Shown in pieces: positions 1,821 through 30,913 of a stretch of DNA of 32,000 bases. The stretch is from Synechocystis sp. PCC 6803 substr. PCC-P (GTDB lineage: Bacteria; Cyanobacteriota; Cyanobacteriia; Cyanobacteriales; Microcystaceae). The stretch's first letter is position 1. Every line of letters starts with the position of its first letter. A program made the position numbers and the translations under genes. Below the pieces are notes generated by a model, which was not told the DNA's origin, searched no databases, and saw nothing but the letters and a program-made list of their open reading frames with translations. The DNA lies in NCBI RefSeq assembly GCF_000284455.1, contig NC_017039.1:780001-812000 (forward strand), given 5' to 3'.

Positions 1821-3266
1821 ATGTCCTCCATGCCCCCCGTGCCTAGCTTACCGTCCACCGATGCCGTTATTCCCCCCGGCAATTTTGTTGAACCTCCCAC
1901 TTCTCCGGTGGTCATTCTCAAGGAGTTGGTGGCTAAGTTGTACCGGGAACAAAATAAAGTGCAGGATCTGTTGGGGGCCATGGGCTACGCCCTGCGGAGT
2001 TTACATAATCTGAATCAGTTTCTGGAATTGACCCCTCTGATGGCCACCAGGGTCACCGATGCCGATGGCAGTGCTTTAGTTCTAATGAGAGAGGGGGAAA
2101 TATCTATCTTTGAACAAATCCATGGCCACAAAAATAGTCTTAAGGGCACCATTAAAGGCGCTTTGCAGAAGGCCCGCCAGGTTAACCTCACATTGGATTC
2201 TTCCACTGTCCTGAGTTATTTTGACCGTCAATTGCGCCAAGAATTACCGGCGATCGCCTGTTATAACACCCCCATTTTGAGTCACCAAGAGGAAGTGGGC
2301 CGCTTATATATCTTTAGTCAAGATCGTAACTATAGCTGGACTCCCACCCGTCGTAAGTTACTACAGCTAATTTCTGATCAAACCGCTGTGGCGATCGCCA
2401 ATAGTGATTTAAACCAAAAGTTGAGATCCAGAGAAAGTCAGGATCGGGAATTGGAAATTGCTTCAGAAATTCAAAATCAACTATTGCCCCGTTGTTGTCC
2501 CCAAATTAATGGTTTGGACATTGCTGCCCAGTGTAAAACCGCCAGTCGGGTAGGTGGGGATTACTACGATTTCATTCCTGCCAACTATGACCAACTGCGC
2601 CAGGGGGATTGGTTATGTCGTAACACAAGCCATTTGGGGGTGCCCTGGAGTATTGTCATCGGCGATGTCATGGGTAAAGGAGTACCGGCGGGTCTAATTA
2701 TGACCATGACTAGGGGGATGCTGCGGGCAGAAGTGCTGAACCGCCATAGTCCAGCCCAAATTCTTAACCACCTCAACCGGGTAATGTATGCCGACCTGGA
2801 AAATTCCCATCGCTTTGTCACCTTGTTTTATTCTGAATATAACCCCGAAACGAGCATACTTTCCTATAGCAACGCCGCCCATAACCCTCCCCTATTGTGG
2901 CGGGCCGGCAGTGACAGCCCCCAATGTTTAATTCCCCTGGATACGGAAGGAGCTTTAATCGGCTTGGAGTCGGATTCCAATTACCGGGATGCCCAGATTC
3001 AGCTTGTTCCCGGGGACGTGGTTCTGTACTATACCGATGGTCTGACCGATGCGGGCAATGCCAAAGGCGATCGATTCGACGACAAAAATCTCCGCATTGC
3101 TTTCCAACGGGCCTGTGAAACCGCCCAAACTGCCCAGGGTATCCTTACGGAAATTTTCACTTCGGTGGAAGCATTTGTGGGCTCAGACAATAGTCATCAA
3201 ACCGATAAAATCCCCGCCCGAGACGATATGACATTGGTCGTTCTGCGGGTAAAATCGACGGAGTGA
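1821..3266 (+). CDS. GAF-like sensor domain fused to a PP2C/SpoIIE-family (RsbU-like) protein serine phosphatase
   Basis: 481-aa ORF. The C-terminal half has SpoIIE/PPM hallmarks: ASEIQNQLLP, VGGDYYDF, GDVMGKGVPAG, YYTDGLTDA and DDMTLVVLRV. Confidence 0.85.
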   Translation: MSSMPPVPSLPSTDAVIPPGNFVEPPTSPVVILKELVAKLYREQNKVQDLLGAMGYALRSLHNLNQFLELTPLMATRVTDADGSALVLMREGEISIFEQIHGHKNSLKGTIKGALQKARQVNLTLDSSTVLSYFDRQLRQELPAIACYNTPILSHQEEVGRLYIFSQDRNYSWTPTRRKLLQLISDQTAVAIANSDLNQKLRSRESQDRELEIASEIQNQLLPRCCPQINGLDIAAQCKTASRVGGDYYDFIPANYDQLRQGDWLCRNTSHLGVPWSIVIGDVMGKGVPAGLIMTMTRGMLRAEVLNRHSPAQILNHLNRVMYADLENSHRFVTLFYSEYNPETSILSYSNAAHNPPLLWRAGSDSPQCLIPLDTEGALIGLESDSNYRDAQIQLVPGDVVLYYTDGLTDAGNAKGDRFDDKNLRIAFQRACETAQTAQGILTEIFTSVEAFVGSDNSHQTDKIPARDDMTLVVLRVKSTE

Positions 3267-3562
3267 GCCTTACTGTTTGGGAGTCAGCGTCTATGTGGCA
3301 GTTTACAGAAGTAATTTCAATCTTTGTACCATCTGACTGGCTGGGACACAGTTATATCCACTGGCAAATGTCTCAAATAATTTCTTTTCCTTGGCTGACG
3401 GACAGTATGGTTTTTGCTCAGAATATCAGTGCGATTAAATCCATTGATATCCTCGCTGACTTCCAAAATGCCTGGAATAATTTTATCCAGTCTGGGCAAA
3501 TTTGGGCTTTGATTATTGGTTTTGTGCTTGGTTGGGGCATACGGGGTTTCACTGGTGGTTAA
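3263..3562 (+). CDS. Hypothetical small protein with a C-terminal hydrophobic helix (start uncertain)
   Basis: 99-aa ORF from a GTG that overlaps the phosphatase stop by 4 nt. Internal ATGs (MWQF.., MSQII.., MVFAQ..) are alternative starts. The C-terminus IWALIIGFVLGWGIRGFTGG looks like a membrane anchor. I recognise no family. Confidence 0.35.
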   Translation: MSLTVWESASMWQFTEVISIFVPSDWLGHSYIHWQMSQIISFPWLTDSMVFAQNISAIKSIDILADFQNAWNNFIQSGQIWALIIGFVLGWGIRGFTGG

Positions 3563-3633
3563 TATTTTTCCCCTCTCAAACTAACTACTCCGCCATCATT
3601 TGCTAACTATCACAACGAAATCCCCCCATCCCA

Positions 3634-5019
3634 ATGACAAAAAAAACCTGGAGCGATCGTTTTGAAGGCACATTGCACCCCGCCATTGCCCTGTTTAATG
3701 CCAGCATTGGTTTTGACATTGAACTAATCGAATATGACCTGGATGGCTCGATCGCCCATGGCAAAATGTTGGCCAAGACGGGCATTATCAGCCCAGGGGA
3801 AGCAGAACAGCTAGTGCAGGGCTTGGAGCAAATTCGCCAGGAATACCGAGCCGGTAATTTCAATCCAGGGGTAGACCAGGAAGACGTTCACTTTGCTGTG
3901 GAACGCCGATTAACAGAATTGGTGGGGGATGTGGGCAAAAAACTCCACACTGCCCGTTCCCGCAATGACCAAGTAGGAACCGATGTTCGTCTTTACCTGC
4001 GTGCCCAAATTGATGACATCCGCCAACGGTTAAGGGATTTTCAAGCAGTGTTGCTCCAACTGGCGGAAACCAATGTGGAAACCTTAATTCCCGGCTACAC
4101 CCACCTACAACGGGCCCAACCGGTCAGTTTGGCTCACCATCTACTGGCCTATTTCCAGATGGCCCAACGGGATTGGCAACGGTTAGGGGAAATTCGAGCT
4201 AGAACTAACGTTTCTCCCCTCGGTTCTGGGGCTTTAGCAGGAACAACTTTTCCCATCGATCGCCATTACAGTGCCGAATTGTTGGGGTTTGCAGGGGTTT
4301 ACGCCAACAGCTTAGATGGGGTGAGCGATCGGGATTTTGCCATTGAATTTCTCAACGCCGCCAGTTTGATCATGGTGCACCTCAGTCGGCTGAGCGAAGA
4401 AATGATCCTCTGGGCTTCCCAGGAATTTAGCTTTATCAGTTTGACCGATAGCTGTGCCACAGGATCAAGCATTATGCCCCAAAAGAAAAATCCAGACGTA
4501 CCAGAGTTAATTCGGGGTAAAGCCGGGCGGGTGATGGGTCATCTGCAAGGAATGCTAGTACTGATGAAAGGTTTGCCCCTGGCCTATAACAAGGATTTGC
4601 AGGAAGACAAGGAAGCCCTGTTTGATGCAGTAAAAACGGTGCAAGTGAGCCTGGAAGCCATGACCATTTTGCTTGATGAAGGTATTGTTTTTCGTCAAGA
4701 ACGGTTAGCGGAGGCGGTGGCGGAAGATTTTTCCAATGCGACGGATGTGGCGGATTACTTGGCGGCTAAGGGAGTCCCCTTCCGGGAAGCTTATAATCTG
4801 GTGGGCAAGGTGGTTAAAACCAGTTTGGCGGCAGGGAAATTGCTCAAGGATTTAACCCTGGCGGAATGGCAAGCGCTCCATCCCGCTTTTGAAGAGGATA
4901 TTTACCAAGCTATTACCCCCCAGCAAGTGGTGGCGGCACGCAATAGTTACGGGGGCACGGGCTTTGAACAGGTGAAAATGGCGATCGCCAATGCCAAAGC
5001 TGAATTAAGCCAGACTTAA
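3634..5019 (+). CDS. argH: Argininosuccinate lyase
   Basis: 461 aa. It has the fumarate-lyase superfamily signature [15 protein letters not shown], an ArgH-typical N-terminus (WSDRFEG...) and [10 protein letters not shown]. Confidence 0.97.
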
Positions 5020-5020
5020 A

Positions 5021-5470
5021 TTGGTGTGGAGATATGCCCAGGTTTTCATTAAGTTACTGCTCCGTCGTCCCCTATCAGCAGTGACGGTAATTCCGGTTCT
5101 ATCAGATAGTTCCATAGTCCTAGTCAAACGACGGGATACAGGGCAATGGAGTTTACCAGGGGGGCTGATCGACTGGGGGGAAACAGTGGCAATAACGGCC
5201 GCCCGAGAGTTACAGGAAGAAACTGGTTTACGGTTGATAAAAATAGATCGCCTGCTTGGGGTCTATTCCAGTCCCGACAGAGATCCCCGCATGCACTCCG
5301 TCACCATTTCCCTGGTGGTTAAAGCGCAAGGTGATTTGCTCATTGGCGATCGCCAGGAAATATCCGAAGTAAAAGCTTTTGCGGTGGAAGATTTACCGTT
5401 AGGAGCATTAAGCCATGACCACGATCAACAACTACAGGATTTTTTACGGGGGGAAACAATCATTGCTTGA
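5021..5470 (+). CDS. Nudix (MutT-family) hydrolase
   Basis: The Nudix box GGLIDWGETVAITAARELQEETGL fits Gx5Ex7REUxEExGU. The ORF starts at TTG 5021 or GTG 5024, 1-4 nt after the argH stop, so the exact start is uncertain. Confidence 0.85.
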   Translation: MVWRYAQVFIKLLLRRPLSAVTVIPVLSDSSIVLVKRRDTGQWSLPGGLIDWGETVAITAARELQEETGLRLIKIDRLLGVYSSPDRDPRMHSVTISLVVKAQGDLLIGDRQEISEVKAFAVEDLPLGALSHDHDQQLQDFLRGETIIA

Positions 5471-5559
5471 TTCCCTGCATTTCTTATTGAGCAAATATTT
5501 TGTATAAATCAGCTAAGTTTTCGACAAGGTCTTTGATACCCATCCCCTATGTTCAATGG

Positions 5560-5716
5560 TCGGGGAACTGGTCCAAATTGGCGATCGTCTCTCATCCGAT
5601 TTCCCTAAGTACACCAACTGCTCAATATCTGAAGCTTTAAAATCAGGTTTTTATAAAGTGGCGATCGTTTGCTCAATCTACTTTTGTAAATCCTGTTCAT
5701 AAAGAGTTTTAGCCAT
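5560..5716 (-). pseudogene. Decayed DUF29-like gene fragment
   Basis: The minus-strand reading from ATG 5716 gives MAKTLYEQDLQK*IEQTIATL*KPDFKASDIEQLVYLGKSDERR. This resembles DUF29 N-termini as I recall them (LYEQDFY.W..Q....L...DF..LD.E.L.EE.E.LG.S.KR). It is broken by two in-frame stops and loses similarity after a HIP1-like GACGATCGCC. Confidence 0.45.
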
Positions 5717-5876
5717 TATAACTACCTTCTATATCAGGGCAATTCAATCCCAGTTGCTTTAGCATAGCGTTTAGTGTTCCAGTTTTTAGTTCATCACTAG
5801 GATTTCGCACAATGGTCAGGCGATCGCTTCTACACTGGGATTACGCACAGTCGCATATTTAACATCAAAGATAATT
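5709..5876 (-). pseudogene. 5'-truncated HicA-like (YcfA-family toxin) remnant with a short internal duplication
   Basis: The minus-strand frame ending at TAA 5709-5711 reads ..LTIVRNPSDELKTGTLNAMLKQLGLNCPDIEGSYNG*. Compare the E. coli HicA C-terminus ..PRHPCDEIKEPLRKAIIKQLGLS. A second partial copy (IIFDVKYATVRNPSVEAIA*) lies just upstream in another frame, across the HIP1 site at 5820-5827. There is no start codon or N-terminal third. Its stop overlaps the ATG of the DUF29-like fragment (ATGGCTAA). Confidence 0.5.
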
Positions 5877-8067
5877 TAAATGGGCTAAAATAGCAAAATT
5901 ATCAAACATTAGGTAAGCTATGATTGAAGATAATCAGTCCCACAATGAAAATATTAAAGAATATCTTAATTACTATAAAAAATTAGATTCTCCTGGTTTC
6001 GCCATTCTTTTAAAAGGTGAATGGGGATGTGGAAAAACCCATTTTATCAAGAATTATTTTCAATTGGAAGACAAAGAAAATAATGAAAGTTTTAATTTTA
6101 AAAAGAAATATTTTTCATTAAAAAACAATCAGCATAAGGAAAATTCAAAAGCAATATATATTAGTTTGTATGGAATTAAGGATATAGAATCTATTGATAT
6201 TCTCATTATACAAAAACTTATACCCATCTTGGCAGATAGGAAAATTCAATTAACTGGCTCTGTTATAAATATTCTTTTAAAATCTTCATTGAAAATTGAT
6301 TTAAAAGACTTAAAAAATACTAAAATTTTAAATGAGTTTACAAATCTAGATAATAAAATTCTAATCCTTGATGATTTAGAAAGGTGTAAAATTGACATCA
6401 ATGATCTACTTGGTTATATTAATTTTTTTGTTGAGCATCAAGCACTCAAAGTTATTCTTATTGCTGATGAAGATAAAATTGAGGGAAACATAATTCAGTC
6501 TTATGAAACAAAGACATTTGACAAAATCAAAGAAAAGGTTATAGGTAAGAGATTTACTGTCAACACATCCTTTAATAAAGCTTTTGAACAATTTTTAAAC
6601 TTAGTTTGTAAAGATGAACAAGAGAAAACATATTTATCTAAAAAACGAGACTTTATTAAAGAGCTATTTGAAACTAGTGACTCTAATAATTTAAGGACAT
6701 TGAAATCAATAATTTATGATTTTGATCGTATTTATTCTTATTTACCTGAAAAAGCCTTAAATAATATTGATTTTCTTGATGATCTATTAAAGTCTCTGAC
6801 CATTCTATCTATAGAAACTAAACTAGGTAATCTCCCAGAAGACCAGATAAAAATATTAAGCGATATATATGGTGAATATTCTTCAAATATTGCTTCAAAT
6901 TACACAAAAATAAGTGAAAAAGTAAAAGAAAACTATAAATATGAACATTTTTTTACGTTTTGTCATCGATTACAATACAAATATGTTTTCAGTTTTGAAT
7001 ATTTTTTGCCTAATTATTTATGGTGGGGAGAATTTTTTGAACATGGCATAATTGACAAGCAAGCTTTGTATCATACATTCATCAACAGTAAGTATTATGT
7101 TAGTCAAGACTCTGAATTATGGCTTAAGCTTTATCACTATGATCGAATTGAATCCGATGAAATATTTGATGAATTAATAAATATTGCTATTGAGAAAATC
7201 AAAAATAGGGATCAATTTGAACATATTGGAATTTTTCTACATGTCATTTCTCTCTTAATATTTTTCTCTAAAGAAGAGTTAATTTCAGAAGATATAAGTA
7301 TGCTAATTCAAATGGCAAAGGATTATATTCAACATTTTTCAATCACGAATGAAACTCGATTTTGGCAGGAAGTTCTAGAAATATCCAATTTTTCTTCAGA
7401 AACATATTTTGTACAATATAAAGAACTTGCGTTTACTAGTGACAATGACTCATATTTCGAAGAAATCAAGTTAACTATTGCAAGAAAAATGCGTTCTATT
7501 TATAATAATAACTATCTAAAGAAAATTAATCAAATTTTAGATACTAATCCTTTGAATCATTACCCACACATGAATCTTGCCGAATTAATCTATCGAAAAA
7601 ATGACGAAATTGAATATTTTCTCCCTAAAGAAGAGTTTCTAAATAAAATTGACGTCAAAAAATCAACTGATTATTTTTTAAAGATAAGCTCTTTTCAACA
7701 AGGTCATATTCTTTATTCAATTTTTAATTATTTTCAGTTGCTATATCACCATAATGAACACAAATCATGTATTGGCTATGAGGCTTGTTTTATCTGTGAA
7801 TTTTTAATTGTAGTTGAGTATAGAAGCATTGAGGCAATTCAAGAGAACAACAGGTTAAATAATCATAAAATCCAAAAAAATTTAAATAAATATTTAACTG
7901 TTAAAACAACTCAGGCTTTAGGCGCATTTATTGTATATATTATTGATTATTATATTTCTCTTATTAGGCAATACAAGAAATATATTGCTTATTCTCCTGC
8001 TATTGTTAATAAAATAAATAAACTCATAGGAATAATGTTTTTTAATCAAAAACCTGATAGCTTTTAA
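5860..8067. other. AT-rich, HIP1-free compositional island (probable horizontal acquisition)
   Basis: Base composition drops abruptly to clearly AT-rich at about 5860, with long A/T runs and Asn/Lys/Ile/Tyr/Phe-rich coding. It returns to host-like composition right at 8067. There is no GCGATCGC between 5828 and 9149. No integrase, transposase or flanking direct repeats are visible. Confidence 0.65.
5920..8067 (+). CDS. KAP-family P-loop NTPase (uncharacterised, 715 aa)
   Basis: Walker A is LLKGEWGCGKTHF (6016-6039), the GxWGxGKT form typical of KAP NTPases. Walker B is KILILDDLERC (about 6355-6384), matching the KAP DDLDRC-type motif, followed by LKVILIADEDKI. A long helical Asn/Lys-rich C-terminal region follows. 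AGGT lies 6 nt upstream of the ATG. Confidence 0.8.
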   Translation: MIEDNQSHNENIKEYLNYYKKLDSPGFAILLKGEWGCGKTHFIKNYFQLEDKENNESFNFKKKYFSLKNNQHKENSKAIYISLYGIKDIESIDILIIQKLIPILADRKIQLTGSVINILLKSSLKIDLKDLKNTKILNEFTNLDNKILILDDLERCKIDINDLLGYINFFVEHQALKVILIADEDKIEGNIIQSYETKTFDKIKEKVIGKRFTVNTSFNKAFEQFLNLVCKDEQEKTYLSKKRDFIKELFETSDSNNLRTLKSIIYDFDRIYSYLPEKALNNIDFLDDLLKSLTILSIETKLGNLPEDQIKILSDIYGEYSSNIASNYTKISEKVKENYKYEHFFTFCHRLQYKYVFSFEYFLPNYLWWGEFFEHGIIDKQALYHTFINSKYYVSQDSELWLKLYHYDRIESDEIFDELINIAIEKIKNRDQFEHIGIFLHVISLLIFFSKEELISEDISMLIQMAKDYIQHFSITNETRFWQEVLEISNFSSETYFVQYKELAFTSDNDSYFEEIKLTIARKMRSIYNNNYLKKINQILDTNPLNHYPHMNLAELIYRKNDEIEYFLPKEEFLNKIDVKKSTDYFLKISSFQQGHILYSIFNYFQLLYHHNEHKSCIGYEACFICEFLIVVEYRSIEAIQENNRLNNHKIQKNLNKYLTVKTTQALGAFIVYIIDYYISLIRQYKKYIAYSPAIVNKINKLIGIMFFNQKPDSF

Positions 8068-10661
8068 TTACTACTAGCAAGCATCAACGTCAGGCGATGA
8101 ATTTGACCTAACTGCATATTAACCCCACTCACTTGCTCAAACAAATATGCTAAATTACGGGGTTGTAGCTGGGTGCCATCATTGCGGCAAGTTCCCATGT
8201 AATCAACAGTAACTCCTTCTGATGTCATTGCAAGGATAGATAAATCAAGCAACTGTTCCCGTAAATTAAGGGTGACTTTTTTGCCCCGTTTGGTTGTTTT
8301 TTCCCACAATATTTCTTCTTGAGCAAGAATTTCTTCCGTCCAGGTTTGCCATTGGGTTAATGTCACCGGTTCTTCAGTAATTAATTGCACTTGGTAACGG
8401 GCTTGGGCCAATAATTGCGTCACCGCTGGGGATTTGGGATCCACTTCTTCCACTTGGTAAACAGGTAAATCTACTGGTAAAACGGCGGCTAAGCGTTGGC
8501 GAAATTCCCCTGGGTCGAGCATTTCTGTGAGGTCAAAATCGACTATTTCCCCGCTACTACTGGAGCCCAAAGGTAAGGCATTGGCAATGGAAATACGGGG
8601 TCCAGGATGGAATCCTCCGGTGAAGGCAATGGGCAAACCTGTGCGACGCATAGCTCGATCAAATAGTCGCACTAGGTCGAGATGACTCACCAAAGCCATG
8701 GAATTTTGCTTGCCAAACCAGACTCTTAGGCGCTGTACCCGGTTAGTGTTGGGTTTAAAGTCCCCATCAAAAACTGGAATAGAGGGCACCGGAGCAATAA
8801 TATTGTGACCAAAATCCACCCCACACACGCCGCAATGGGAGCAACCGTCAAAGGAACAGTCGGGAACGGTGGCCGCTTCTAGGGCGTTAAATAAGTCATT
8901 TTTGAGCCAAGTTTTATCAATGCCGGTATCGAGGTGGTCCCAGGGTAGGGGAGCATCATAGACATTTTCATCGGGGGTATCCCCATGGAAAATATTCCAT
9001 TCTCCGTCTTCTACAAGGCGATATTTCCAGGTTAAATCCGCTTCGTCGATCGCCTGGGCCCAGGCCCCATAGGCTTTGTCCAAACTTTCCCACCAGGCAT
9101 CCATTCCTGCTCCCAATTCCCAGGCACGACGTACCACTTGCCCCAAACGGCGATCGCCTCGACCGACAAAGTCTTCCATGGCGGAAATGCGGACATCGGT
9201 ATAATTCACTTTCACTCCTCGCACCCCTTTAAAAGCCTGTCGCAGTAAATCCTGTTTGCGGCGGAACTCACTGGTAGAAACAGAATGCCATTGAAAAGGG
9301 GTATGGGGTTTGGGGGTGAAATTGGAAATGGTCAGATTAAAATTTAAAGCTCGACGCTGGGGTAAACGACATTCTTGGCGCAACCATTGCACCGTTTCCA
9401 CAATACCTAGAACGTCCACATCGGTTTCCCCCGGCAAGCCAATCATGAAATAAAGTTTGACCTTATCCCAACCCTGTTCCACCGCGGTTTTAATTCCCCG
9501 CAATAATTCTTCGTTGGTCAACCCCTTGTTAATCACATCCCGCAACCTTTGGGTGCCTGCCTCTGGAGCAAAAGTTAAACTTCCCTGTCTAGTGCCGCCA
9601 AGAATGTTGGCAATATTTTCATCAAAACGATCCACCCTTTGGCTGGGCAAAGTGAGGGCAATATTTTCATTTTTGAGGCGATTTCTGATTTCCAATCCCA
9701 CCGCTGGTAAAGCTAAATAATCGGAACAACTGAGGGAAAGCAAAGAAAATTCGTTATAACCCGTTTGTCGAATACCTGTTTCAATGGCATCAATCACTGC
9801 TTCCGGCTCCACATCCCTGGCCGGACGGGTCAACATTCCCGGTTGGCAAAAACGACAGCCCCTAGTACAGCCCCGACGAATTTCCACCGTCAGGCGATCG
9901 TGAACAGTTTCAATCAAAGGTACCAAGCCAATGGAGTAAGCAGGGATGGGGGTGGCCACCCGGCGCATAATGCGTTTGGGCACATCGTCCCGATTAGGAT
10001 GTACGGAACCATCATTGGCCATGTCATAAAAGCGGGGCACATAAACCCCTGGCACTTGGGCTAAATCAAGTAATAAATTTTCTTTGCTTAATCCCTGAAG
10101 TTTCCCTTCTTCTAGTACCAAGCCAATTTCTGGTAACAATTCTTCCCCGTCCCCCAGGGCAATGAAATCGAAAAAGTCGGCATAGGGTTCGGGATTAGAA
10201 GTGGCAGTTTGTCCCCCGGCAAAAATCAGTGGATAATCCCCCTCTTTTCTTTCCTGCCAAGTGAGGGGAATATGGGCCAATTCCAACATTTCCAAAATAT
10301 TAGTGGCTCCCAATTCGTAGCTCAAACTAAAGCCTAAAATGTCGAATTCTGGTAAGTAACGACGGGATTCCAAGGAGAATAAGGGCGTATTTGTTTCTCG
10401 CAGTTTTGTTGCCAAGTCGGCGGCGGGGAGATAGGTGCGATCGCACAATTGCCTGGGTTGGGCATTGATGATGTTGTAGAGCAAAATATGCCCCAGGTTG
10501 GAGGCTCCCAGCTCATAAACTTCGGGATAGGTCAATACCCAGCGCACCGTAGCACTTTTCCATTCCTTGTGCACTGTCCCCAATTCGTTGCCTAGATACC
10601 GGGCGGGCTTATGGATCTCGGCATTAATCAGGGTTTCTACGGGCACTGGCATGGTTTTCAC
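8064..10661 (-). CDS. Uncharacterised radical-SAM protein: B12-binding-like/radical-SAM N-terminal part fused to a DUF2344-type 'radical SAM-linked' C-terminal part
   Basis: 865-aa ORF with the radical-SAM triad in RRGCTRGCRFCQPG. A second Cys cluster, PDCSFDGCSHCGVCG, follows the core. The C-terminal ~230 aa (RVWFGKQNSMALVSHLDLVRLFDRAMRRTGLPIAFTGGFHP) resemble the separately encoded radical-SAM-linked protein family. Confidence 0.85.
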   Translation of the reverse strand: MKTMPVPVETLINAEIHKPARYLGNELGTVHKEWKSATVRWVLTYPEVYELGASNLGHILLYNIINAQPRQLCDRTYLPAADLATKLRETNTPLFSLESRRYLPEFDILGFSLSYELGATNILEMLELAHIPLTWQERKEGDYPLIFAGGQTATSNPEPYADFFDFIALGDGEELLPEIGLVLEEGKLQGLSKENLLLDLAQVPGVYVPRFYDMANDGSVHPNRDDVPKRIMRRVATPIPAYSIGLVPLIETVHDRLTVEIRRGCTRGCRFCQPGMLTRPARDVEPEAVIDAIETGIRQTGYNEFSLLSLSCSDYLALPAVGLEIRNRLKNENIALTLPSQRVDRFDENIANILGGTRQGSLTFAPEAGTQRLRDVINKGLTNEELLRGIKTAVEQGWDKVKLYFMIGLPGETDVDVLGIVETVQWLRQECRLPQRRALNFNLTISNFTPKPHTPFQWHSVSTSEFRRKQDLLRQAFKGVRGVKVNYTDVRISAMEDFVGRGDRRLGQVVRRAWELGAGMDAWWESLDKAYGAWAQAIDEADLTWKYRLVEDGEWNIFHGDTPDENVYDAPLPWDHLDTGIDKTWLKNDLFNALEAATVPDCSFDGCSHCGVCGVDFGHNIIAPVPSIPVFDGDFKPNTNRVQRLRVWFGKQNSMALVSHLDLVRLFDRAMRRTGLPIAFTGGFHPGPRISIANALPLGSSSSGEIVDFDLTEMLDPGEFRQRLAAVLPVDLPVYQVEEVDPKSPAVTQLLAQARYQVQLITEEPVTLTQWQTWTEEILAQEEILWEKTTKRGKKVTLNLREQLLDLSILAMTSEGVTVDYMGTCRNDGTQLQPRNLAYLFEQVSGVNMQLGQIHRLTLMLASSN

Positions 10662-10973
10662 TTTGGCGTTGGGCAGTTACCCATTATCGCACGGAGCTTT
10701 GGGGGAATAGTCTGCTACCAGTTTTGAGAACCAGGATTAGGGAGGGATTAGCAACAGAAAACATTCGTTGCTGCAGGGGTAGAAATCCCCTTTATCAGCG
10801 AAGACAATGATTGCCATAGAACAAATTTATCATAAAAACAGGCACAGAAGGAGACGGCAAGATTGTTAAAGAACTCTGAAGAATTTGGCTGGAGCTTGAC
10901 CCCGCTCTGGAGAATTGCTTTACCCTGTAGGGGATTGTAATTTTTGTTGTTTTCCGAGAGATAGAGGTTTGCT

Positions 10974-11972
10974 GTGAAAATTCCCGGTAGTGTCATAACC
11001 CTTCTCATCGGCGTTGTGATCACAGTTGTTAGTTTATGGTACGGACAGAATCATGGTCTGATGCCCGTGGCTGCCTCCGCCGATGCAGAAAAGGTGGATG
11101 GCATTTTTAACTACATGATGACCATTGCCACAGGATTATTCCTCTTGGTAGAAGGAGTTTTGGTTTATTGCCTGATCCGCTTTCGCCGACGCAAAGACGA
11201 CCAAACCGATGGTCCACCCATAGAAGGTAACGTGCCCCTGGAAATTCTCTGGACTGCCATCCCTACGGTGATTGTTTTTACCTTGGCGGTGTATAGCTTT
11301 GAGGTGTACAACAACCTGGGCGGTTTGGATCCAACCATTTCTAGGGATAATGCCGGTCAGCAGATGGCCCATAACCACATGGGACATATGGGGAGCATGG
11401 GGAATATGGTGGCTATGGCTGGGGACGGAGATGTTGCCCTGGGCATTGGTTTAGATAGCGAAGAACAAGGAGTCAACCCCCTGATGGTAGATGTGAAGGG
11501 AATTCAGTATGCGTGGATTTTCACCTATCCCGAAACGGGGATTATTTCCGGCGAACTGCACGCCCCCATCGATCGCCCGGTGCAATTGAACATGGAAGCC
11601 GGGGATGTGATCCATGCCTTTTGGATTCCCCAATTACGGTTAAAGCAGGATGTGATTCCGGGGCGGGGCAGTACCTTGGTGTTTAATGCCAGCACCCCTG
11701 GGCAGTATCCGGTTATCTGTGCTGAGTTGTGTGGTGCTTACCATGGGGGCATGAAATCGGTCTTCTACGCCCATACCCCCGAAGAGTATGACGACTGGGT
11801 GGCGGCCAATGCTCCGGCTCCAACGGAATCCATGGCAATGACATTGCCCAAAGCGACCACCGCCATGACCCCCAACGAATATTTAGCCCCCTATGCGAAA
11901 GAAATGGGAGTACAAACTGAAGCTTTAGCCCAATTAAAAGATCAAACCTCTCCGGTTGGAGATCTACTCTGA
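10974..11972 (+). CDS. ctaC: Cytochrome c oxidase subunit II
   Basis: GTG start with GAGG 6 nt upstream. It has two N-terminal TM helices and the CuA site HAFWIP...CAELCGAYHGGM. It is followed directly by ctaD and ctaE. Confidence 0.93.
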   Translation: MKIPGSVITLLIGVVITVVSLWYGQNHGLMPVAASADAEKVDGIFNYMMTIATGLFLLVEGVLVYCLIRFRRRKDDQTDGPPIEGNVPLEILWTAIPTVIVFTLAVYSFEVYNNLGGLDPTISRDNAGQQMAHNHMGHMGSMGNMVAMAGDGDVALGIGLDSEEQGVNPLMVDVKGIQYAWIFTYPETGIISGELHAPIDRPVQLNMEAGDVIHAFWIPQLRLKQDVIPGRGSTLVFNASTPGQYPVICAELCGAYHGGMKSVFYAHTPEEYDDWVAANAPAPTESMAMTLPKATTAMTPNEYLAPYAKEMGVQTEALAQLKDQTSPVGDLL

Positions 11973-12060: not shown

Positions 12061-13716
12061 ATGACTATTGCCGCTGAGAATCTAACGGCTAATCATCCCC
12101 GCCGCAAATGGACGGATTACTTTACCTTTTGCGTTGACCATAAGGTGATTGGCATCCAATATCTAGTTACGTCTTTCCTCTTCTTTTTCATTGGCGGTTC
12201 CTTTGCGGAAGCCATGCGGACGGAATTAGCCACTCCATCCCCGGATTTTGTCCAGCCGGAAATGTATAACCAACTGATGACCCTCCACGGCACGATTATG
12301 ATCTTTCTGTGGATTGTGCCGGCAGGGGCGGCCTTTGCCAACTATCTCATTCCCCTCATGGTGGGCACAGAGGATATGGCTTTTCCTCGCCTCAATGCCG
12401 TTGCTTTTTGGCTAACTCCACCGGGGGGCATTTTGCTTATTTCCAGCTTTTTTGTGGGGGCACCCCAGGCAGGCTGGACTTCCTATCCACCTTTGAGTTT
12501 GCTGAGTGGTAAATGGGGAGAAGAACTGTGGATTTTGAGTTTGCTGTTGGTGGGGACCTCCTCCATTCTGGGGGCGATTAATTTTGTTACCACCATTTTG
12601 AAGATGCGTATCAAGGACATGGATTTGCACAGTATGCCCCTGTTTTGCTGGGCTATGCTGGCCACCTCTTCTTTGATTTTGCTTTCCACCCCAGTGTTAG
12701 CATCCGCTCTGATTCTGCTTTCCTTTGACCTGATTGCCGGCACTAGCTTCTTTAACCCAGTGGGGGGGGGAGACCCGGTGGTTTACCAGCATTTATTCTG
12801 GTTTTACTCCCATCCGGCGGTGTACATCATGATTTTGCCCTTTTTTGGCGTAATCTCTGAGGTCATTCCTGTCCACGCCCGCAAACCCATCTTTGGCTAC
12901 CGGGCGATCGCCTATTCGAGTTTGGCCATTAGCTTTCTGGGCTTGATTGTCTGGGCCCACCATATGTTCACCAGCGGTACCCCCGGTTGGTTACGGATGT
13001 TCTTCATGGCTACCACCATGTTGATTGCTGTGCCCACGGGGATCAAAATTTTCAGTTGGTGCGGTACCCTCTGGGGCGGCAAAATTCAACTCAACTCCGC
13101 CATGTTGTTTGCCTTTGGTTTCCTATCTAGCTTCATGATTGGTGGGCTAACCGGGGTAATGGTGGCGTCTGTTCCGTTCGATATCCATGTCCACGACACC
13201 TATTTTGTGGTGGGACACTTCCATTACGTGCTCTTTGGTGGCAGCGCCTTTGCTTTATTTTCTGGGGTTTACCACTGGTTCCCGAAAATGACTGGCCGCA
13301 TGGTCAATGAGCCCCTGGGTCGTCTTCACTTCATCCTCACTTTTATCGGCATGAATTTAACCTTTATGCCCATGCATGAGTTGGGGTTAATGGGAATGAA
13401 CCGCCGCATTGCCCTCTACGACGTTGAATTTCAACCCCTAAACGTTTTGAGCACCATTGGAGCCTACGTTTTAGCCGCTTCCACCATTCCTTTTGTCATC
13501 AACGTTTTTTGGAGTTTGTTTAAGGGGGAAAAGGCGGCCCGGAATCCTTGGCGAGCTCTGACCCTAGAATGGCAAACGGCCTCTCCTCCTATTATTGAAA
13601 ACTTTGAAGAAGAACCAGTGCTCTGGTGTGGTCCCTACGATTTTGGTATTGACACGGAGTTAATGGATGACGAAGAAACAGTCCAAACCCTAATTGCCGA
13701 TGCGGCAGGAAGTTAG
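12061..13716 (+). CDS. ctaD: Cytochrome c oxidase subunit I
   Basis: 551 aa and polytopic. It has heme-copper oxidase motifs: GGGDPVVYQHLFWFYSHPAVY, WAHHMFT and GHFHYVLFGG. Confidence 0.97.
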   Translation: MTIAAENLTANHPRRKWTDYFTFCVDHKVIGIQYLVTSFLFFFIGGSFAEAMRTELATPSPDFVQPEMYNQLMTLHGTIMIFLWIVPAGAAFANYLIPLMVGTEDMAFPRLNAVAFWLTPPGGILLISSFFVGAPQAGWTSYPPLSLLSGKWGEELWILSLLLVGTSSILGAINFVTTILKMRIKDMDLHSMPLFCWAMLATSSLILLSTPVLASALILLSFDLIAGTSFFNPVGGGDPVVYQHLFWFYSHPAVYIMILPFFGVISEVIPVHARKPIFGYRAIAYSSLAISFLGLIVWAHHMFTSGTPGWLRMFFMATTMLIAVPTGIKIFSWCGTLWGGKIQLNSAMLFAFGFLSSFMIGGLTGVMVASVPFDIHVHDTYFVVGHFHYVLFGGSAFALFSGVYHWFPKMTGRMVNEPLGRLHFILTFIGMNLTFMPMHELGLMGMNRRIALYDVEFQPLNVLSTIGAYVLAASTIPFVINVFWSLFKGEKAARNPWRALTLEWQTASPPIIENFEEEPVLWCGPYDFGIDTELMDDEETVQTLIADAAGS

Positions 13717-26706: not shown

Positions 26707-26943
26707 TTATGGCAATGGCCCAATGCGGGATAGGAGCGATCGCCTTTGTAAATGAAGACTGATCAATTCGTCTGCGCCCAAGCTACCGATAATCAGGGCG
26801 GCAAACAATGATCCCATTCTATTGGCCGGGGTGGATAACACCAGAATGGCGATCGCCAGGGCGAGGAAAAATAGACCAAAAAAAGATCTGATTACCAACT
26901 CCTGTTTTGATCTGGTAACTTGTTGGCCGGCGTTTTTTTTCAT
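26707..26943 (-). CDS. Hypothetical small two-helix membrane protein
   Basis: 78-aa ORF with two hydrophobic segments (FFGLFFLALAIAILVLS and LFAALIIGSLG). It has an ATG start with GGGGGA about 9 nt upstream. It sits between leuS and the ATPase on the same strand. Confidence 0.5.
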   Translation of the reverse strand: MKKNAGQQVTRSKQELVIRSFFGLFFLALAIAILVLSTPANRMGSLFAALIIGSLGADELISLHLQRRSLLSRIGPLP

Positions 26944-26970
26944 TGGCGCAATTCCCCCGTAAAATCAGCC

Positions 26971-29589
26971 CTAGGTGATAACAAAATTGACTAATTTACC
27001 CGGTACGACAATTACCTTTTTAATCGTTTTCCCTTCCAAATAACGTTGGGCTAAATCAGAATTACGGGCCAATTCTTCCAACTGGGTTTTATCCGCACTG
27101 GCGGGAACAGTGATAGTTCCCCGAGTTTTGCCTAGCACTTGAATGACCAACGTAATTTCATCTAATACTAGGGCAGTGGGATCCACCTGCAACCAAGCCT
27201 GTTGGTGAATGGAGTCAGTACGACCCAAACGATGCCACAATTCCTCCGTCAAGTGGGGCGCAAAGGGAGCAAGGAGTAACAGCAGGGTTTCAATGCCTTC
27301 TTGGTAAACGGGAAAAGAAATCAAATCCGTCGCCGCAATTAGGGCATTACTGAGTTTCATCATTTCGGAAATAGCGGTGTTGAACTGGTAATCGTCGTTC
27401 AAATCCTCCGCCACTTCTTTGATTGCCCCATGGATAGCCCGCCGTAAATCTTTCTCCGCTTTAGTTAAAGGCTCGTTGGTCACTAAGGTTTCGGGGCGCA
27501 CCGCGAAGCGGATCCCTGCGGGATCGCCAATGTAATCGGTTACTAAGCGCCAAACCCGATTGAGAAAGCGGAATTGACCTTCCACGTCCGCATCGTCCCA
27601 TTCTAAATCCTTCTCTGGAGGGGCTTTGAAAAGGATAAACATCCGGGCGGTGTCGGCACCATATTTAGCCAACACTTCTTGGGGATCCACACCGTTAAAT
27701 TTGGATTTAGACATTTTTTCGTAGAAAACCTGTAGCGGTTCCCCACTGTCGGGGTCCTTTGGATCCTTGGGATCAATTACCTGTTGTCCCGTTTGCAAAT
27801 CCTTGGCCGGCACATATTTGCCCGTGGTGGGATTTTTGTAGGTAATACCCTGCACCATGCCCTGGGTTAACAATTTTTGGAACGGTTCTTTGACGGGAAT
27901 TAACTGGCGATCGGCCAAAACTTTGGTGAAAAAGCGGGAATAAAGCAAATGTAAAATGGCGTGTTCAATGCCCCCCACATACTGGTCTACCGGCAACCAG
28001 TGGGCAACTTTTTCCCCATCAAAGGGCAACTCAGTGTTTTGGGCATCGGCATAACGCAGAAAATACCAGGAAGAATCAATGAACGTATCCATGGTGTCCG
28101 TTTCCCGCCGGGCTGGTTTTCCACAACTGGGACAGGGCACGTTAATCCAATCCTCTAATTTCGCTAGGGGAGAAGGGCCACGACCGGAAAATTCCACATT
28201 ATCTGGCAACTCCACCGGCAAATCCTTGGTCGGTACGGGCACTGCTCCACAGTCATCGCAATGAATGATGGGAATGGGACAGCCCCAATATCGTTGTCGA
28301 GAAATCAACCAATCCCGCAGACGATATTGCACTTTGGCCCGACCATAATCATTATCTTCAGCGAATTTAATAATGGCCTGTTTTGCTTTGGGGGAAGCCA
28401 TACCGGTGAATTGAGCTGAATTAACCATCACCCCCGCTTCGGTATAGGCCACCGTCAAATTCACATCACTGTTATCGGCATCGTCGGGAATAATCACCAC
28501 TTGCATGGGCAAATTATTATCCTGGGCAAATTTGAAATCCCGTTGATCGTGGGCGGGAACCCCCATCACTGCGCCGGTGCCGTATTCGTATAGAACATAA
28601 TCGGCAATCAAAATGGGAATTTCTTCTCCGTTGAAGGGATTGATAGCAATGCCACCGGTTTTAACACCACGCTTGGGTTTATCCTCCGCTGTCCGTTCAA
28701 TTTCACTCTCTTTGGCCACCATGGCGACAAACTCATCCACTGTGCCCTGTTGTTCTGCTGTGGTAACCACCTTGGTTAAAGGATGTTCTGGGGCTAAAAC
28801 CACGTAGGTAACGCCGTAAACCGTGTCCGGGCGGGTGGTGAAAACAGCAATTTTTTCCTGACTATCCTTGATGGGAAATTCCAAATAAGCCCCCACGGAT
28901 TTGCCAATCCAATGGGACTGCATCAGTTTGACCCGTTCTGGCCAGCCCGTTAATTGCTCTAAATCATTCAGTAAAGCTTCGGCGTAGTCGGTGATTTTTA
29001 AGAACCATTGCCGCAATAATTTACGCTCCACCATGGCCCCCGATCGCCAGGAGCGGCCTTCACTATCGACCTGCTCATTGGCCAGAACTGTTTGATCAAT
29101 GGGGTCCCAATTAACGGTGGCTTCTTTTTGGTAGGCCAAACCAGCTTGGAAAAATTCCAAAAACAACCATTGGGTCCAACGGTAATAATCGGGGGCACAG
29201 GTGGCCACTTCCCGTTCCCAATCGATGGAAAGCCCCAACTGTTGCAACTGGGCTCGCATCTGGGCAATATTTTTTTCTGTCCACTGCTTGGGGGGAATAC
29301 CCCGCTCAATGGCTGCATTTTCCGCCGGTAAACCAAAGGCATCCCAACCCATAGGATGCAACACCTGGTAACCCTGCATCCGTTTTAACCGAGCAATGAC
29401 ATCGGTGATGGTGTAGTTGCGCACATGGCCCATGTGGAGGTTCCCGGAAGGATAGGGAAACATGGACAGGGCATAAAATTTAGGCAGATCAGAGGCGATC
29501 GGTGTTTTGTCCAACCCCCATTCAGCCCAGCGTTGTTGCCATTTTTGCTCGATTTCACCAGCGTTGTATGGGGATGCCACGACGACCAA
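26971..29589 (-). CDS. leuS: Leucyl-tRNA synthetase
   Basis: Class I signatures are [11 protein letters not shown] (HIGH) and KMSKSK (KMSKS). The CP1 editing region and the overall 872-aa length are typical of bacterial LeuS. The start is TTG 29589 or GTG 29580. Confidence 0.97.
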
Positions 29590-29704
29590 GATCTCCTAAG
29601 CCCAGTTGATTACAGGCTTGTTAGTATACCATTCTGACTTGGGCCCAAGGTTGTCTGTTAACCATCCTAGACCAGTGACCACGTAGAGATTGAAATTTGC
29701 GATT

Positions 29705-30913
29705 ATGGAAACTATTCAATTCAACATACGCCAGACAATTATTGTCGCAATTTTAGTGCTTTACATTGGTAAATATCTCACTAAAAAAATTAAGTTTTTG
29801 CAGAGTTTTAATATTCCCGATGCCGTTTCCGGTGGAGTGCTAGCTTCCCTGTTTTTTGGTCTCATCTACGGTATTTTTCGCACAGAAGTAGCTTTCAATT
29901 TTCCGATTAGGGATGCTTTTTTAATTATTTTCTTTACCTGCATTGGTCTATCTTCCAAGTTAAAAGTCCTACTCCAGGGCGGCAAACCCCTATTGATTCT
30001 TTTAGCAACAGCGGTGAGTTTTTTAGTAATTCAAAATTTTGTCGGGGTGGGTATGGCTTCCCTATTGGGGCAGGCGTTACCAGTGGGTTTACTCTCCGGG
30101 TCCATTTCCCTGAGTGGTGGCCATGGCACGGCGATCGCCTGGTCTCCGGTTTTTTATGATAACCACGGCATCCGTAATGCTTCGGAAATTGCCATAGCCT
30201 GTGCCACTTTTGGGCTGGTGTTCGGGGGCATTGTGGGAGGCCCCATCGCCAAATTTTTAATTATCCGCAATAAGTTAGAACCGGATTGTGACACTAAAGA
30301 TTTGACCATTGGCATCCGGCGAGATCAGGACAATGTGCAAATTGATTACAACACCATGCTCCACACCATTTTAGTCATTGGCGTTACCATCGGTCTTGGC
30401 TATGAAATTAACGATCTGGTTGCTAAGTTGGGGTTAATGTTGCCGGCCTTTGTTTCCTGTTTACTGGCGGGGATCGTGCTCACCAACACCATTCCCCTCG
30501 CTTTTAAAAAATTCCCTTGGCCGGCGGAAACCCCTTCCCTCGCCCTGATTTCCGACGTTAGTTTGGGACTATTCCTGGCCATTTCCCTGATGAGCCTGCA
30601 ACTCTGGACCTTAGCCGACATTGGCGGAGTGATCGCCCTGATCCTCCTGGTCCAATTCATGGCCACAGTGCTCTACAGCATTGCTGTTGTTTTTCCCCTC
30701 ATGGGGCGTGACTACAACGCAGCGGTAGTTTGCTCCGGTTATTCCGGTTTAACCCTGGGGGCCACCCCCACGGCGATCGCCAATATGACCGCAGTGACGG
30801 AAAAATTCGGCGCCGCTCCCCAGGCTTTCATCGTTGTACCCTTGGTGGGGGCCTTCTTCATCGACATTGCCAATGCCTTTGTGATCCAGCAATTTCTCAA
30901 TTTTCTTGGCTAG
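29705..30913 (+). CDS. gltS: Sodium/glutamate symporter
   Basis: Polytopic, about 400 aa. The GltS-family N-terminus (METIQFNIRQTIIVAILVLYIGKYL) parallels E. coli GltS, and SGGHGTA is a conserved GltS motif. I use ATG 29705 rather than the upstream TTG 29690. Confidence 0.88.
   Translation: METIQFNIRQTIIVAILVLYIGKYLTKKIKFLQSFNIPDAVSGGVLASLFFGLIYGIFRTEVAFNFPIRDAFLIIFFTCIGLSSKLKVLLQGGKPLLILLATAVSFLVIQNFVGVGMASLLGQALPVGLLSGSISLSGGHGTAIAWSPVFYDNHGIRNASEIAIACATFGLVFGGIVGGPIAKFLIIRNKLEPDCDTKDLTIGIRRDQDNVQIDYNTMLHTILVIGVTIGLGYEINDLVAKLGLMLPAFVSCLLAGIVLTNTIPLAFKKFPWPAETPSLALISDVSLGLFLAISLMSLQLWTLADIGGVIALILLVQFMATVLYSIAVVFPLMGRDYNAAVVCSGYSGLTLGATPTAIANMTAVTEKFGAAPQAFIVVPLVGAFFIDIANAFVIQQFLNFLG

Follow-up and report, generated by a model that had tools for sequence, protein, structure and literature searches.

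RESULTS

A lone KAP NTPase gene on an AT-rich island

The window analysed here, 32,000 nt of Synechocystis sp. PCC 6803 substr. PCC-P (contig NC_017039.1, positions 780,001–812,000), has the gene order RNase II – DUF512 – SpoIIE – argH – nudix – KAP – sll1084 (radical SAM, minus strand) – ctaCDE, in which the KAP gene is the cargo of a recently acquired single-gene island at a hotspot at the 3′ end of sll1084 and its product is a soluble P-loop NTPase of the KAP family that belongs to PDC-S49 of PADLOC. As it lies between the nudix gene and ctaC, the gene is presumably slr1135. Its 715-amino-acid product is letter-identical on BA000022.2 and many PCC 6803-derived assemblies. The positions of the features discussed below are collected in Table 1.

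A window composition scan gave a G+C content of 0.23–0.28 across approximately 5800 to approximately 8000, compared with approximately 0.49 on both sides, and the sharp break at both edges described by the original prediction (a reading of the letters of this stretch, made without database searches) is therefore real. The segment itself was correctly recognized as AT-rich, but its left edge, previously put at 5860, is moved by synteny, which resets the extent to 5828–~8078. Within the island the KAP open reading frame (ORF) has a G+C content of 0.254 (0.478 for the remainder of the window), a G+C content at third codon positions of 0.197 (0.45–0.59 in eight neighbour genes) and a product in which 45.5 % of residues belong to the FYMINK group specified by AT-rich codons (22.5 % in neighbours). 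The ORF is intact and is the sole ORF of the island, as had been claimed: the remaining five frames of the segment are open for no more than 70 codons, and since the per-codon stop probability at island composition is 0.091, so that 715 open codons would be found by chance with P ~10^-30, this ORF is certainly a gene.

The leader that precedes the gene, and which the island itself brought in, contains TAAAAT at 5887–5892 and an AGG 8 nt ahead of the ATG; an Rfam search (E ≤ 0.1) over 5300–8400 returned no RNA element. HIP1 octamers are indeed absent between 5827 and 9150, with 25 in the whole window. However, a stretch of 2.25 kb should contain no more than 1.9 sites on average (probability of finding none, 0.15), and a comparably long HIP1-free stretch of normal G+C content lies at 26849–30131; HIP1 depletion, to which the original prediction had given weight, is not significant and was dropped as independent evidence of foreignness.

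The island replaces part of a hicA gene at a variable site

The loci of relatives were retrieved through orthologues of sll1084. In the sister strain CACIAM 05 (CP019225.1, our locus L085), the nearest relative of PCC 6803, the orthologue is 98 % identical and stands in the same order, ctaEDC – radical SAM – slot – nudix – argH, and the slot holds a short hicA frame and a 153-amino-acid HicB-like gene (HicB-like_2), while the KAP gene is absent. By blastn, CACIAM 05 matches window positions 3001–5626 at 91 %, 5729–5827 (the hicA region) at 84 % and 8095–11000 at 96.5 %, and the 2.25 kb of the island correspond to approximately 183 bp. Ancient vertical inheritance, named beforehand as an outcome that would tell against a mobile origin, was thus not what we found.

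The toxin–antitoxin (TA) debris noticed beside the island proved to be the C-terminal half of a hicA gene on the minus strand (recognized by the Pfam HicA_toxin profile), which reads '...DRLTIVRNPSDELKTGTLNAMLKQLGL...' in PCC 6803 and is cut exactly at a HIP1 octamer, where the island begins; on its other side a deletion scar stands in place of the hicB-containing segment of CACIAM 05. Since hicA was there before the event and lost its 5′ half to the island, the event was a gain in the PCC 6803 lineage rather than a loss elsewhere. The right junction falls inside the final three to four sll1084 codons, and the C-terminal tail encoded there is different in all four strains compared.

We found no convincing terminal repeats or target duplication at the island, no recombinase, transposase or integrase ORF within it and no tRNA in the window. 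Mobilization as a transposon or by an integrase was rejected on these grounds (missing repeats, recombinase and tRNA), and it is more likely that the island was captured by recombination at a variable hotspot than by site-specific integration. Further Synechocystis genomes document this variability. In JAHLZD010000011.1 (orthologue 94 % identical) a full-length pAgo gene (PADLOC pAgo, 1015 bits; Pfam PAZ_3) lies directly 3′ of the sll1084 orthologue and is followed by an MNT/HepT pair and a DUF29 gene; a metagenomic Synechocystis (orthologue 98 % identical) has a 142-amino-acid unannotated ORF and MNT/HepT in the same slot; and in S. salina MNT/HepT lie on the opposite side of the orthologue, with an unannotated 306-amino-acid ORF 3′ of it. 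In PCC 7338 the synteny around the orthologue differs. Both sides of the sll1084 orthologue are thus a variable defence/TA hotspot in Synechocystis, and the neighbourhood, which had been called conserved and housekeeping, does share its gene order with CACIAM 05 but is broken at exactly one variable point. The hotspot cargo is found at 12785–16171 of L087, 8601–9732 of L098, 4634–5637 and 9074–9994 of L100, and 12758–13318 of L085.

Several details of the junction regions may be recorded. The KAP stop codon TAA (8065–8067, plus strand) and the convergent sll1084 stop codon TAA (8064–8066, minus strand) share bases of the palindrome TTAA. Nothing resembling a terminator separates the two stops, and transcription of either gene would therefore run on antisense into its neighbour. 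The hicA gene of CACIAM 05 (L085, 12593–12850) is nearly complete and split over two frames, with the N-terminus 'MRGNEFVKRLKQLAREQ' followed by 'KRGKGSHVTLYYGDRLTIV...', and the split is due either to a frameshift in the toxin gene or to an error of sequencing; its hicB is intact. The intergenic region between the nudix and KAP genes contains three GGCGATCG-containing 13-mers, at 5580–5592, 5660–5672 and 5819–5831 (80 and 159 bp apart), and the third alone is a full HIP1 octamer and the island junction.

Domain organization and predicted structure of the KAP protein

Residues 13–274 match the KAP profile PF07693 from position 3 to position 292 of 293 with 180.6 bits, against a gathering score of 20, so that a profile search places the protein firmly in the family that had been proposed for it, and only some 12 residues precede the domain. 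The two motifs from which the family had first been read, GEWGCGKT and ILILDDLERC, are the Walker A and Walker B motifs and carry the residues that are invariant in the family (Table 1). The domain contains two low-confidence inserts at the places where other KAP proteins have transmembrane (TM) helices, namely a low-complexity insert of 28 residues behind the Walker A helix (~50–77) and a second insert (~107–133); both are polar or basic. The absence of a TM insertion between Walker A and Walker B is confirmed, and no TM-grade segment was found anywhere in the protein on the Kyte–Doolittle (KD) hydropathy scale, the sole measure applied (highest 19-residue mean 1.56, in a helix common to soluble homologues).

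No Pfam family matches residues 275–715 and no NCBIfam model matches the protein, but the PADLOC model PDLC05031 (PDC-S49) does so over nearly the full length (residues 6–660 to profile positions 3–610 of 624; 3.6e-123, 410.6 bits), followed by the further PDC-S49 models PDLC05029 (1.4e-104) and PDLC05030 (8.1e-69). The PADLOC models for PifA, QatA and Tmn gave no match even at E ≤ 1, and phrog_4740 matched at 3.4e-59. A hidden frameshift behind the divergent C-terminus was considered and rejected, as tblastn of 40 homologues against 5401–8400 matched the annotated frame alone. We have very little doubt that this is a foreign, intact gene and that it encodes a KAP NTPase of PDC-S49.

The full-length AlphaFold2 (AF2) model (mean predicted local distance difference test score, pLDDT, 78.7; predicted template modelling score 0.67) has an alpha/beta core with the P-loop, behind which the chain is entirely helical. 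The C-terminal part is thus helical and unmatched in Pfam, as originally described, although at 276–715 (approximately 440 residues) it is shorter than the 500 residues given then; it carries a conserved WWxxFFxxG motif at residues 368–376. Foldseek with the full model found nothing at E ≤ 1e-3 in either the PDB or BFVD, and a sequence search of the PDB gave no relative beyond a chance P-loop match. The weak fold matches obtained (E from 6e-3 to 1e-1) are confined to the nucleotide-binding core and comprise ORC/Cdc6, MuB, RADAR RdrA, ZAR1, RFC and TnsC, all of them ring- or filament-forming AAA+/STAND proteins. Modelled separately (pLDDT 72.3), the C-terminal domain matched generic alpha-solenoids in the PDB at E ≥ 0.11 and nothing else. 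Structure prediction had been proposed as a means of finding effector or sensor domains in this region; neither Pfam nor Foldseek detected a nuclease, protease, TIR, pore or other recognizable effector fold, and the modelled helical region appears compatible with a STAND-like sensor.

Distribution and genomic contexts of the family

A search of a large protein collection, in which 8,000 candidates were scored, gave 765 homologues at E ≤ 1e-3, the nearest full-length one 38–40 % identical (38 % by BLASTP), together with a 399-amino-acid fragment that is 59 % identical. In an alignment of 41 members (A1), homologous over some 640 residues, 22 columns are invariant, among them E205-K206, N257, R259 and W401 in addition to the Walker residues, and the PCC 6803 protein keeps all 22. 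Median pairwise identity falls from 0.49 in the NTPase to 0.29 at the C-terminus, the pattern of a conserved switch driving a faster-evolving recognition module. A profile of the C-terminal region only (276 to end) found 1,979 representative clusters at E ≤ 1e-3, 772 of them at E ≤ 1e-30, and since in the best 150 of the 1,979 this domain always occupies ~255–640 of proteins of 600–700 residues, or occurs in fragments, we regard it as private to the KAP architecture. With approximately 2,000 clusters at 50 % identity in the family, the description of the gene as an orphan holds locally but not family-wide.

In a survey of 80 homologous genome loci, with neighbour ORFs clustered by BLAST and annotated by Pfam, the family proved patchy across phyla, occurring in cyanobacteria (many loci, including a Calothrix plasmid), Zetaproteobacteria, Bacteroidota, Campylobacterota, Alphaproteobacteria and Gammaproteobacteria. 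None of the 80 loci revealed a conserved partner gene, as even the commonest neighbour clusters are shared by no more than 11 loci, where their positions vary. These clusters are type I restriction–modification (R-M) subunits (HsdM, HsdS and two HsdR types), and hsdM, hsdS or hsdR genes lie within 1.5 kb of the homologue in 12 of the 80 loci (a raw count), at some of them with gaps of 0–11 bp; the PCC 6803 copy is not among the R-M-embedded ones. Uma2, ParE, HipA, AAA_21, TniQ, phage integrases and HTH_3 also recur, amid much housekeeping. In Leptolyngbya boryana the homologue closes a prophage-like block that includes a tape-measure protein and Phage_YomQ_N, one metagenomic copy lies amid unannotated small ORFs and an integrase, several cyanobacterial plasmids carry members, and in Aliarcobacter butzleri the neighbourhood is mainly housekeeping with strain-variable genes downstream. 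The proposed association of homologues with defence genes and mobile DNA is thus borne out. An aggregated PADLOC scan of the neighbour proteins was swamped by redundant type I specificity models and is uninformative alone. Among phages, one partial family match was found in 50,697 GenBank records, and a scan of IMG/VR with the single protein gave no relatives.

Two contexts deserve separate mention. In L089 (10251–18067) the ORF behind a homologue (P0003) exceeds 3,250 amino acids and runs off the locus, and a tyrosine integrase and many unannotated small ORFs lie upstream of the homologue, and this region is probably a mobile element. In L017 (2050–3039) and two other Nostoc loci the homologue lies 210–265 bp downstream of TniQ, beside type I R-M genes, which suggests that it is carried as Tn7-like cargo.

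The composition of the PCC 6803 gene is shared by its relatives. At 70 of the 72 loci compared, taken from L005–L084, the G+C content of the homologue is below that of its flanks (median difference −10.4 points, 43 loci below −10) in hosts that range from 26 % to 70 % G+C; with −22 points the PCC 6803 gene thus lies at the far end of a trait that runs through the family and is no peculiarity. Such consistency over 72 loci is not explained by a single recent transfer each time.

The closest relative, P0001 (locus L088), is a gene of 27.8 % G+C between flanks of 47.6 % and shares 70.5 % DNA identity over 1.3 kb with the PCC 6803 gene; it is truncated, with an in-frame stop, and is a pseudogene. 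A HicB-like gene lies divergently upstream of it. Moreover, a 34-bp stretch of the window (5685–5718), left of the hicA remnant, is 85 % identical to L088 9309–9342, just past the truncation point of the pseudogene; this similarity may be a common recombination scar or a link of hic loci with the KAP gene.

Table 1. Positions in the window of the island, its gene and protein domains, and the adjoining features
Feature	Position	Strand	Basis
AT-rich horizontally acquired island, 2.25 kb	5828–8078 (right edge approximate)		blastn and MAFFT against L085, L086 and L087; composition
Island-borne 5′ leader, presumed promoter region of the KAP gene	5828–5919	+	Direct sequence reading
KAP-family P-loop NTPase gene, 715 amino acids, PADLOC PDC-S49 family	5920–8067	+	Pfam, PADLOC
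KAP NTPase domain, residues 13–274	5956–6741	+	Pfam PF07693, 5.3e-53; AF2 pLDDT; 41-member alignment
Walker A GEWGCGKT, residues 33–40 (K39)	6016–6039	+	G33, W35, G36, G38, K39 and T40 invariant in 41 sequences
Walker B ILILDDLERC, residues 147–156	6358–6387	+	D151, D152, L153, E154 and R155 invariant in 41 sequences
Family-specific all-alpha C-terminal domain, residues 276–660	6745–7899	+	AF2 models; Foldseek best E = 0.11; profile search
C-terminal extension of ~55 amino acids, residues 661–715, this copy only	7900–8064	+	Alignment; PADLOC match stops at 660; KD 1.47; pLDDT 36–59
Deletion scar, ~100 bp in place of ~520 bp with hicB in CACIAM 05	5627–5728		blastn blocks; HicB-like_2 in L085
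hicA toxin remnant, C-terminal half alone, 5′ half replaced by the island	5709–5827	-	Pfam HicA_toxin, 1.5e-5, profile positions 33–58 of 58; 84 % nucleotide identity to CACIAM 05; translations
HIP1 octamer GCGATCGC, exact left junction	5820–5827		Base-level alignment; minus strand encodes 'GDR' of hicA
sll1084 (radical-SAM gene, TIGR03960), variable 3′ end	8064–8094	-	Last codons differ in every strain; stop overlaps the KAP stop in TTAA (8064–8067)

DISCUSSION

The analyses presented here describe a foreign single-gene island and place its product in a candidate defence family. What is new is the insertion anatomy (the HIP1 junction, the truncation of hicA, the loss of hicB and the overlapping TTAA stops), the empty site in CACIAM 05 and the hotspot and, in addition, the family-wide AT bias and the exclusivity and fold-novelty of the C-terminal domain. 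The kind of protein, in contrast, is less novel than was originally claimed, when it was called an undescribed type with no function assigned. It already has a place as PADLOC PDC-S49, and other single-gene KAP NTPases have been shown to be anti-phage (PLoS Biol 2026, PMC13552941); since it belongs to PDC-S49 and the class combining a KAP NTPase with a C-terminal region was demonstrated in 2026 for other proteins, we regard it as a member of a known candidate kind.

The 145 PADLOC candidates (PDCs), of which PDC-S49 is one, were derived from genes that lie within BREX, DISARM and type I R-M systems (Payne et al., bioRxiv 10.1101/2024.01.29.577857). The PCC 6803 protein resembles this family in its near full-length hidden Markov model match, in being a single gene without a partner and in having relatives within type I R-M operons, and the R-M embedding seen in our 12 loci independently reproduces the basis of the PDC-S49 call. 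The PCC 6803 copy differs, however, in being only 29–40 % identical, in its weakly conserved last quarter, 28-residue insert and 55-residue tail, and in standing alone among housekeeping genes instead of within an R-M system. The functional precedent comes from single-gene KAP NTPases with C-terminal regions of unknown function that protect Enterococcus faecalis from phages, of which EF_KAP needs both its Walker B motif and its C-terminal region for defence and does not act by abortive infection (PMC13552941). By their description EF_KAP and three metagenomic KAP NTPases share with our protein the combination, on one polypeptide, of a KAP NTPase and a long C-terminal region that matches no known domain or structure, whereas those genes adjoin small serine recombinases (PMC13552941) and none is found near the PCC 6803 gene.

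PifA and QatA are the older KAP examples in defence. QatA (of qatABCD), which forms 7–8-mers and binds DNA, belongs like our protein to the broad group of P-loop NTPases in anti-phage systems, but its model gave no match and QatB, QatC and QatD are not adjacent, the neighbours of the KAP gene being the nudix gene, the hicA remnant and sll1084. Tmn, of the YobI family, which senses a phage protein and increases its ATP turnover, is likewise an anti-phage protein of this broad group, but it has two TM helices within its P-loop domain, while our protein has no TM-grade segment and no match to the Tmn model; lacking TM helices, our protein is unlikely to work as Tmn does, at the membrane or through Mg2+ export. 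With STAND/Avs proteins and RADAR RdrA the PCC 6803 protein shares a conserved P-loop switch with a more variable helical C-terminus, and a weak fold match to RdrA heptamers and the NLR ZAR1, but it has no N-terminal effector, no NACHT, NB-ARC or STAND Pfam signature and no RdrB-like partner, and the fold match reaches E ~1e-2 only.

On balance, we suggest from its foreign origin, family, genomic contexts and precedents that the KAP protein is a defence protein that provides stand-alone immunity against phages or mobile elements. How it would act can be put forward only tentatively, and a sensor switch driven by NTP is perhaps the case. The C-terminal helical domain (276–660) would bind a trigger derived from a phage or element; trigger binding might license nucleotide-dependent assembly of the N-terminal AAA+/STAND-like P-loop domain into a ring or filament; and the assembled NTPase may itself be the effector, either burning NTP or clamping and remodelling invading nucleic-acid or protein complexes. 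This model is the best supported because the architecture and the conservation gradient combine with the requirement of EF_KAP for Walker B and the C-terminal region (PMC13552941). It is doubtful, though conceivable, that PDC-S49 represents a mechanistically new class of immune NTPase, in which a soluble KAP P-loop and a private alpha-solenoid, with neither anchor nor enzymatic effector, make the NTPase itself the weapon. The protein belongs to a subfamily of the KAP superfamily apart from the characterized ones, since the PifA, QatA and Tmn models do not match it and the alignment of PifA with the family is limited to 39 Walker A columns.

PifA raises a different mechanism. This 741-residue protein of the F plasmid, which excludes phage T7, is the one TM-less KAP NTPase for which phage exclusion has long been known (PMC13001434), and it resembles the PCC 6803 protein in size, family, lack of TM helices and carriage on mobile DNA. 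By analogy our protein might sense a phage protein and join the membrane through amphipathic or hydrophobic segments, depolarization and nucleotide leakage then killing the cell, and candidate segments do exist in the moderately hydrophobic tail specific to this copy (KD 1.47 and 1.05) and in the basic amphipathic insert 101–133. We nevertheless consider abortive infection of this sort quite unlikely: hhalign of A1 against F-plasmid PifA aligns the 39 Walker A columns and no more (60 % probability); PifA matches the PADLOC models for PifA (963 bits), QatA and PDC-S20 while the PCC 6803 protein matches PDC-S49 alone; the hydrophobic tail is missing from the rest of the family; pifA has the regulator pifC upstream whereas no regulator stands beside the PCC 6803 gene; and the enterococcal KAP protein is not abortive.

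Several observations weigh against a defence function, at least in PCC 6803 itself. Residues 561–660 share only 12 % identity with relatives, where the median for the family is 29 %, at 22 of 101 near-invariant columns (mainly towards the C-terminus, including R-Y and P positions) the protein has a different residue, and a tail of some 55 residues is unique to this copy; with so atypical a C-terminal quarter and tail, the sensor end may have been re-specified or may be decaying. The closest relative is a pseudogene. A scan for consensus promoters gave no match at threshold in the leader (5828–5919), with matches overall not above those in shuffled sequence. Beyond this copy, the majority of the 80 neighbourhoods are of mixed or housekeeping character, and the R-M count is a raw one; the PDCs are explicitly described as untested (bioRxiv 10.1101/2024.01.29.577857), the supplements of that preprint do not name PDC-S49, and a text search of the literature gave no mention of slr1135 or PDC-S49.

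These features, together with the extreme and un-ameliorated composition, would suit an inactive passenger that is intact merely because it arrived recently and is silent or losing function in PCC 6803. We judge this unlikely, given a frame far too long to be open by chance, the retention of all 22 invariant residues and the identity of the protein over many PCC 6803-derived assemblies. Moreover, AF2 is confident for residues 590–660 (block means of 80–85), which form family-like helices despite their divergence, and the ratio of nonsynonymous to synonymous substitutions against P0001 is 0.23 (418 aligned codons, Nei–Gojobori; rough, since synonymous divergence is ~1.0), which indicates that the lineage has evolved under purifying selection. 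From its sequence the PCC 6803 gene is probably functional.

An active protein need not serve the host's defence. It could be a housekeeping NTPase of a mobile element, involved in target selection, partition or maintenance in the manner of MuB or TnsC, or in addiction; the weak likeness of the P-loop core to the filaments of MuB and TnsC (E values of ~1e-2 to 1e-1), the three TniQ-linked Nostoc loci and the sporadic, throughout AT-rich family point this way. We hold this to be very improbable, however, because the fold likeness is generic to AAA+/STAND proteins (ORC, RFC, RdrA and NLRs match too), the island carries none of the hallmarks of an element (transposase, integrase, terminal repeats, target duplication, tRNA), no partner recurs in the 80 loci, and the TniQ loci also hold type I R-M genes, as expected of cargo. 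Equally, the KAP family includes non-defence eukaryotic members, and many loci have housekeeping neighbours, so that a Synechocystis-specific physiological NTPase with a signalling or scaffold role like that of Kidins220/ARMS may be imagined; its absence from CACIAM 05 despite identical synteny, its foreign composition, its patchiness across phyla and its insertion into a TA gene, at the very hotspot where other genomes carry pAgo and TA modules, make this the hardest proposal to credit.

We therefore favour stand-alone immunity. In the new-class reading, the consistent AT-richness might be part of the biology of the family, for example as a means of silencing a costly gene or of controlling its expression. 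For cyanobacteria, PCC 6803 is the chief genetic model, yet its non-CRISPR, non-R-M defences are poorly charted. The island offers a clean single-gene representative of PDC-S49 with a natural empty-site control in CACIAM 05, and a transformable host makes the new-class reading directly testable. If the activity is real, a PADLOC candidate would be validated, the defence class combining KAP and C-terminal domains would be extended to TM-less proteins and to cyanobacteria, and the 3′ end of sll1084 would be flagged as a defence/TA hotspot worth mining; if the gene is inactive, the locus is an annotated example of recent horizontal transfer only.

Finally, three minor observations concern the window and the records searched. 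A 99-codon ORF at 3263–3562, between the SpoIIE-domain gene and argH, is called as 64–89 amino acids in public assemblies and has no Pfam match. The record NZ_CP141089.1 (L097), a 4.94-Mb E. coli record, is catalogued as a plasmid in PLSDB. An identical Synechocystis locus is present in the 7.59-Mb record AP012495.1 (L002).

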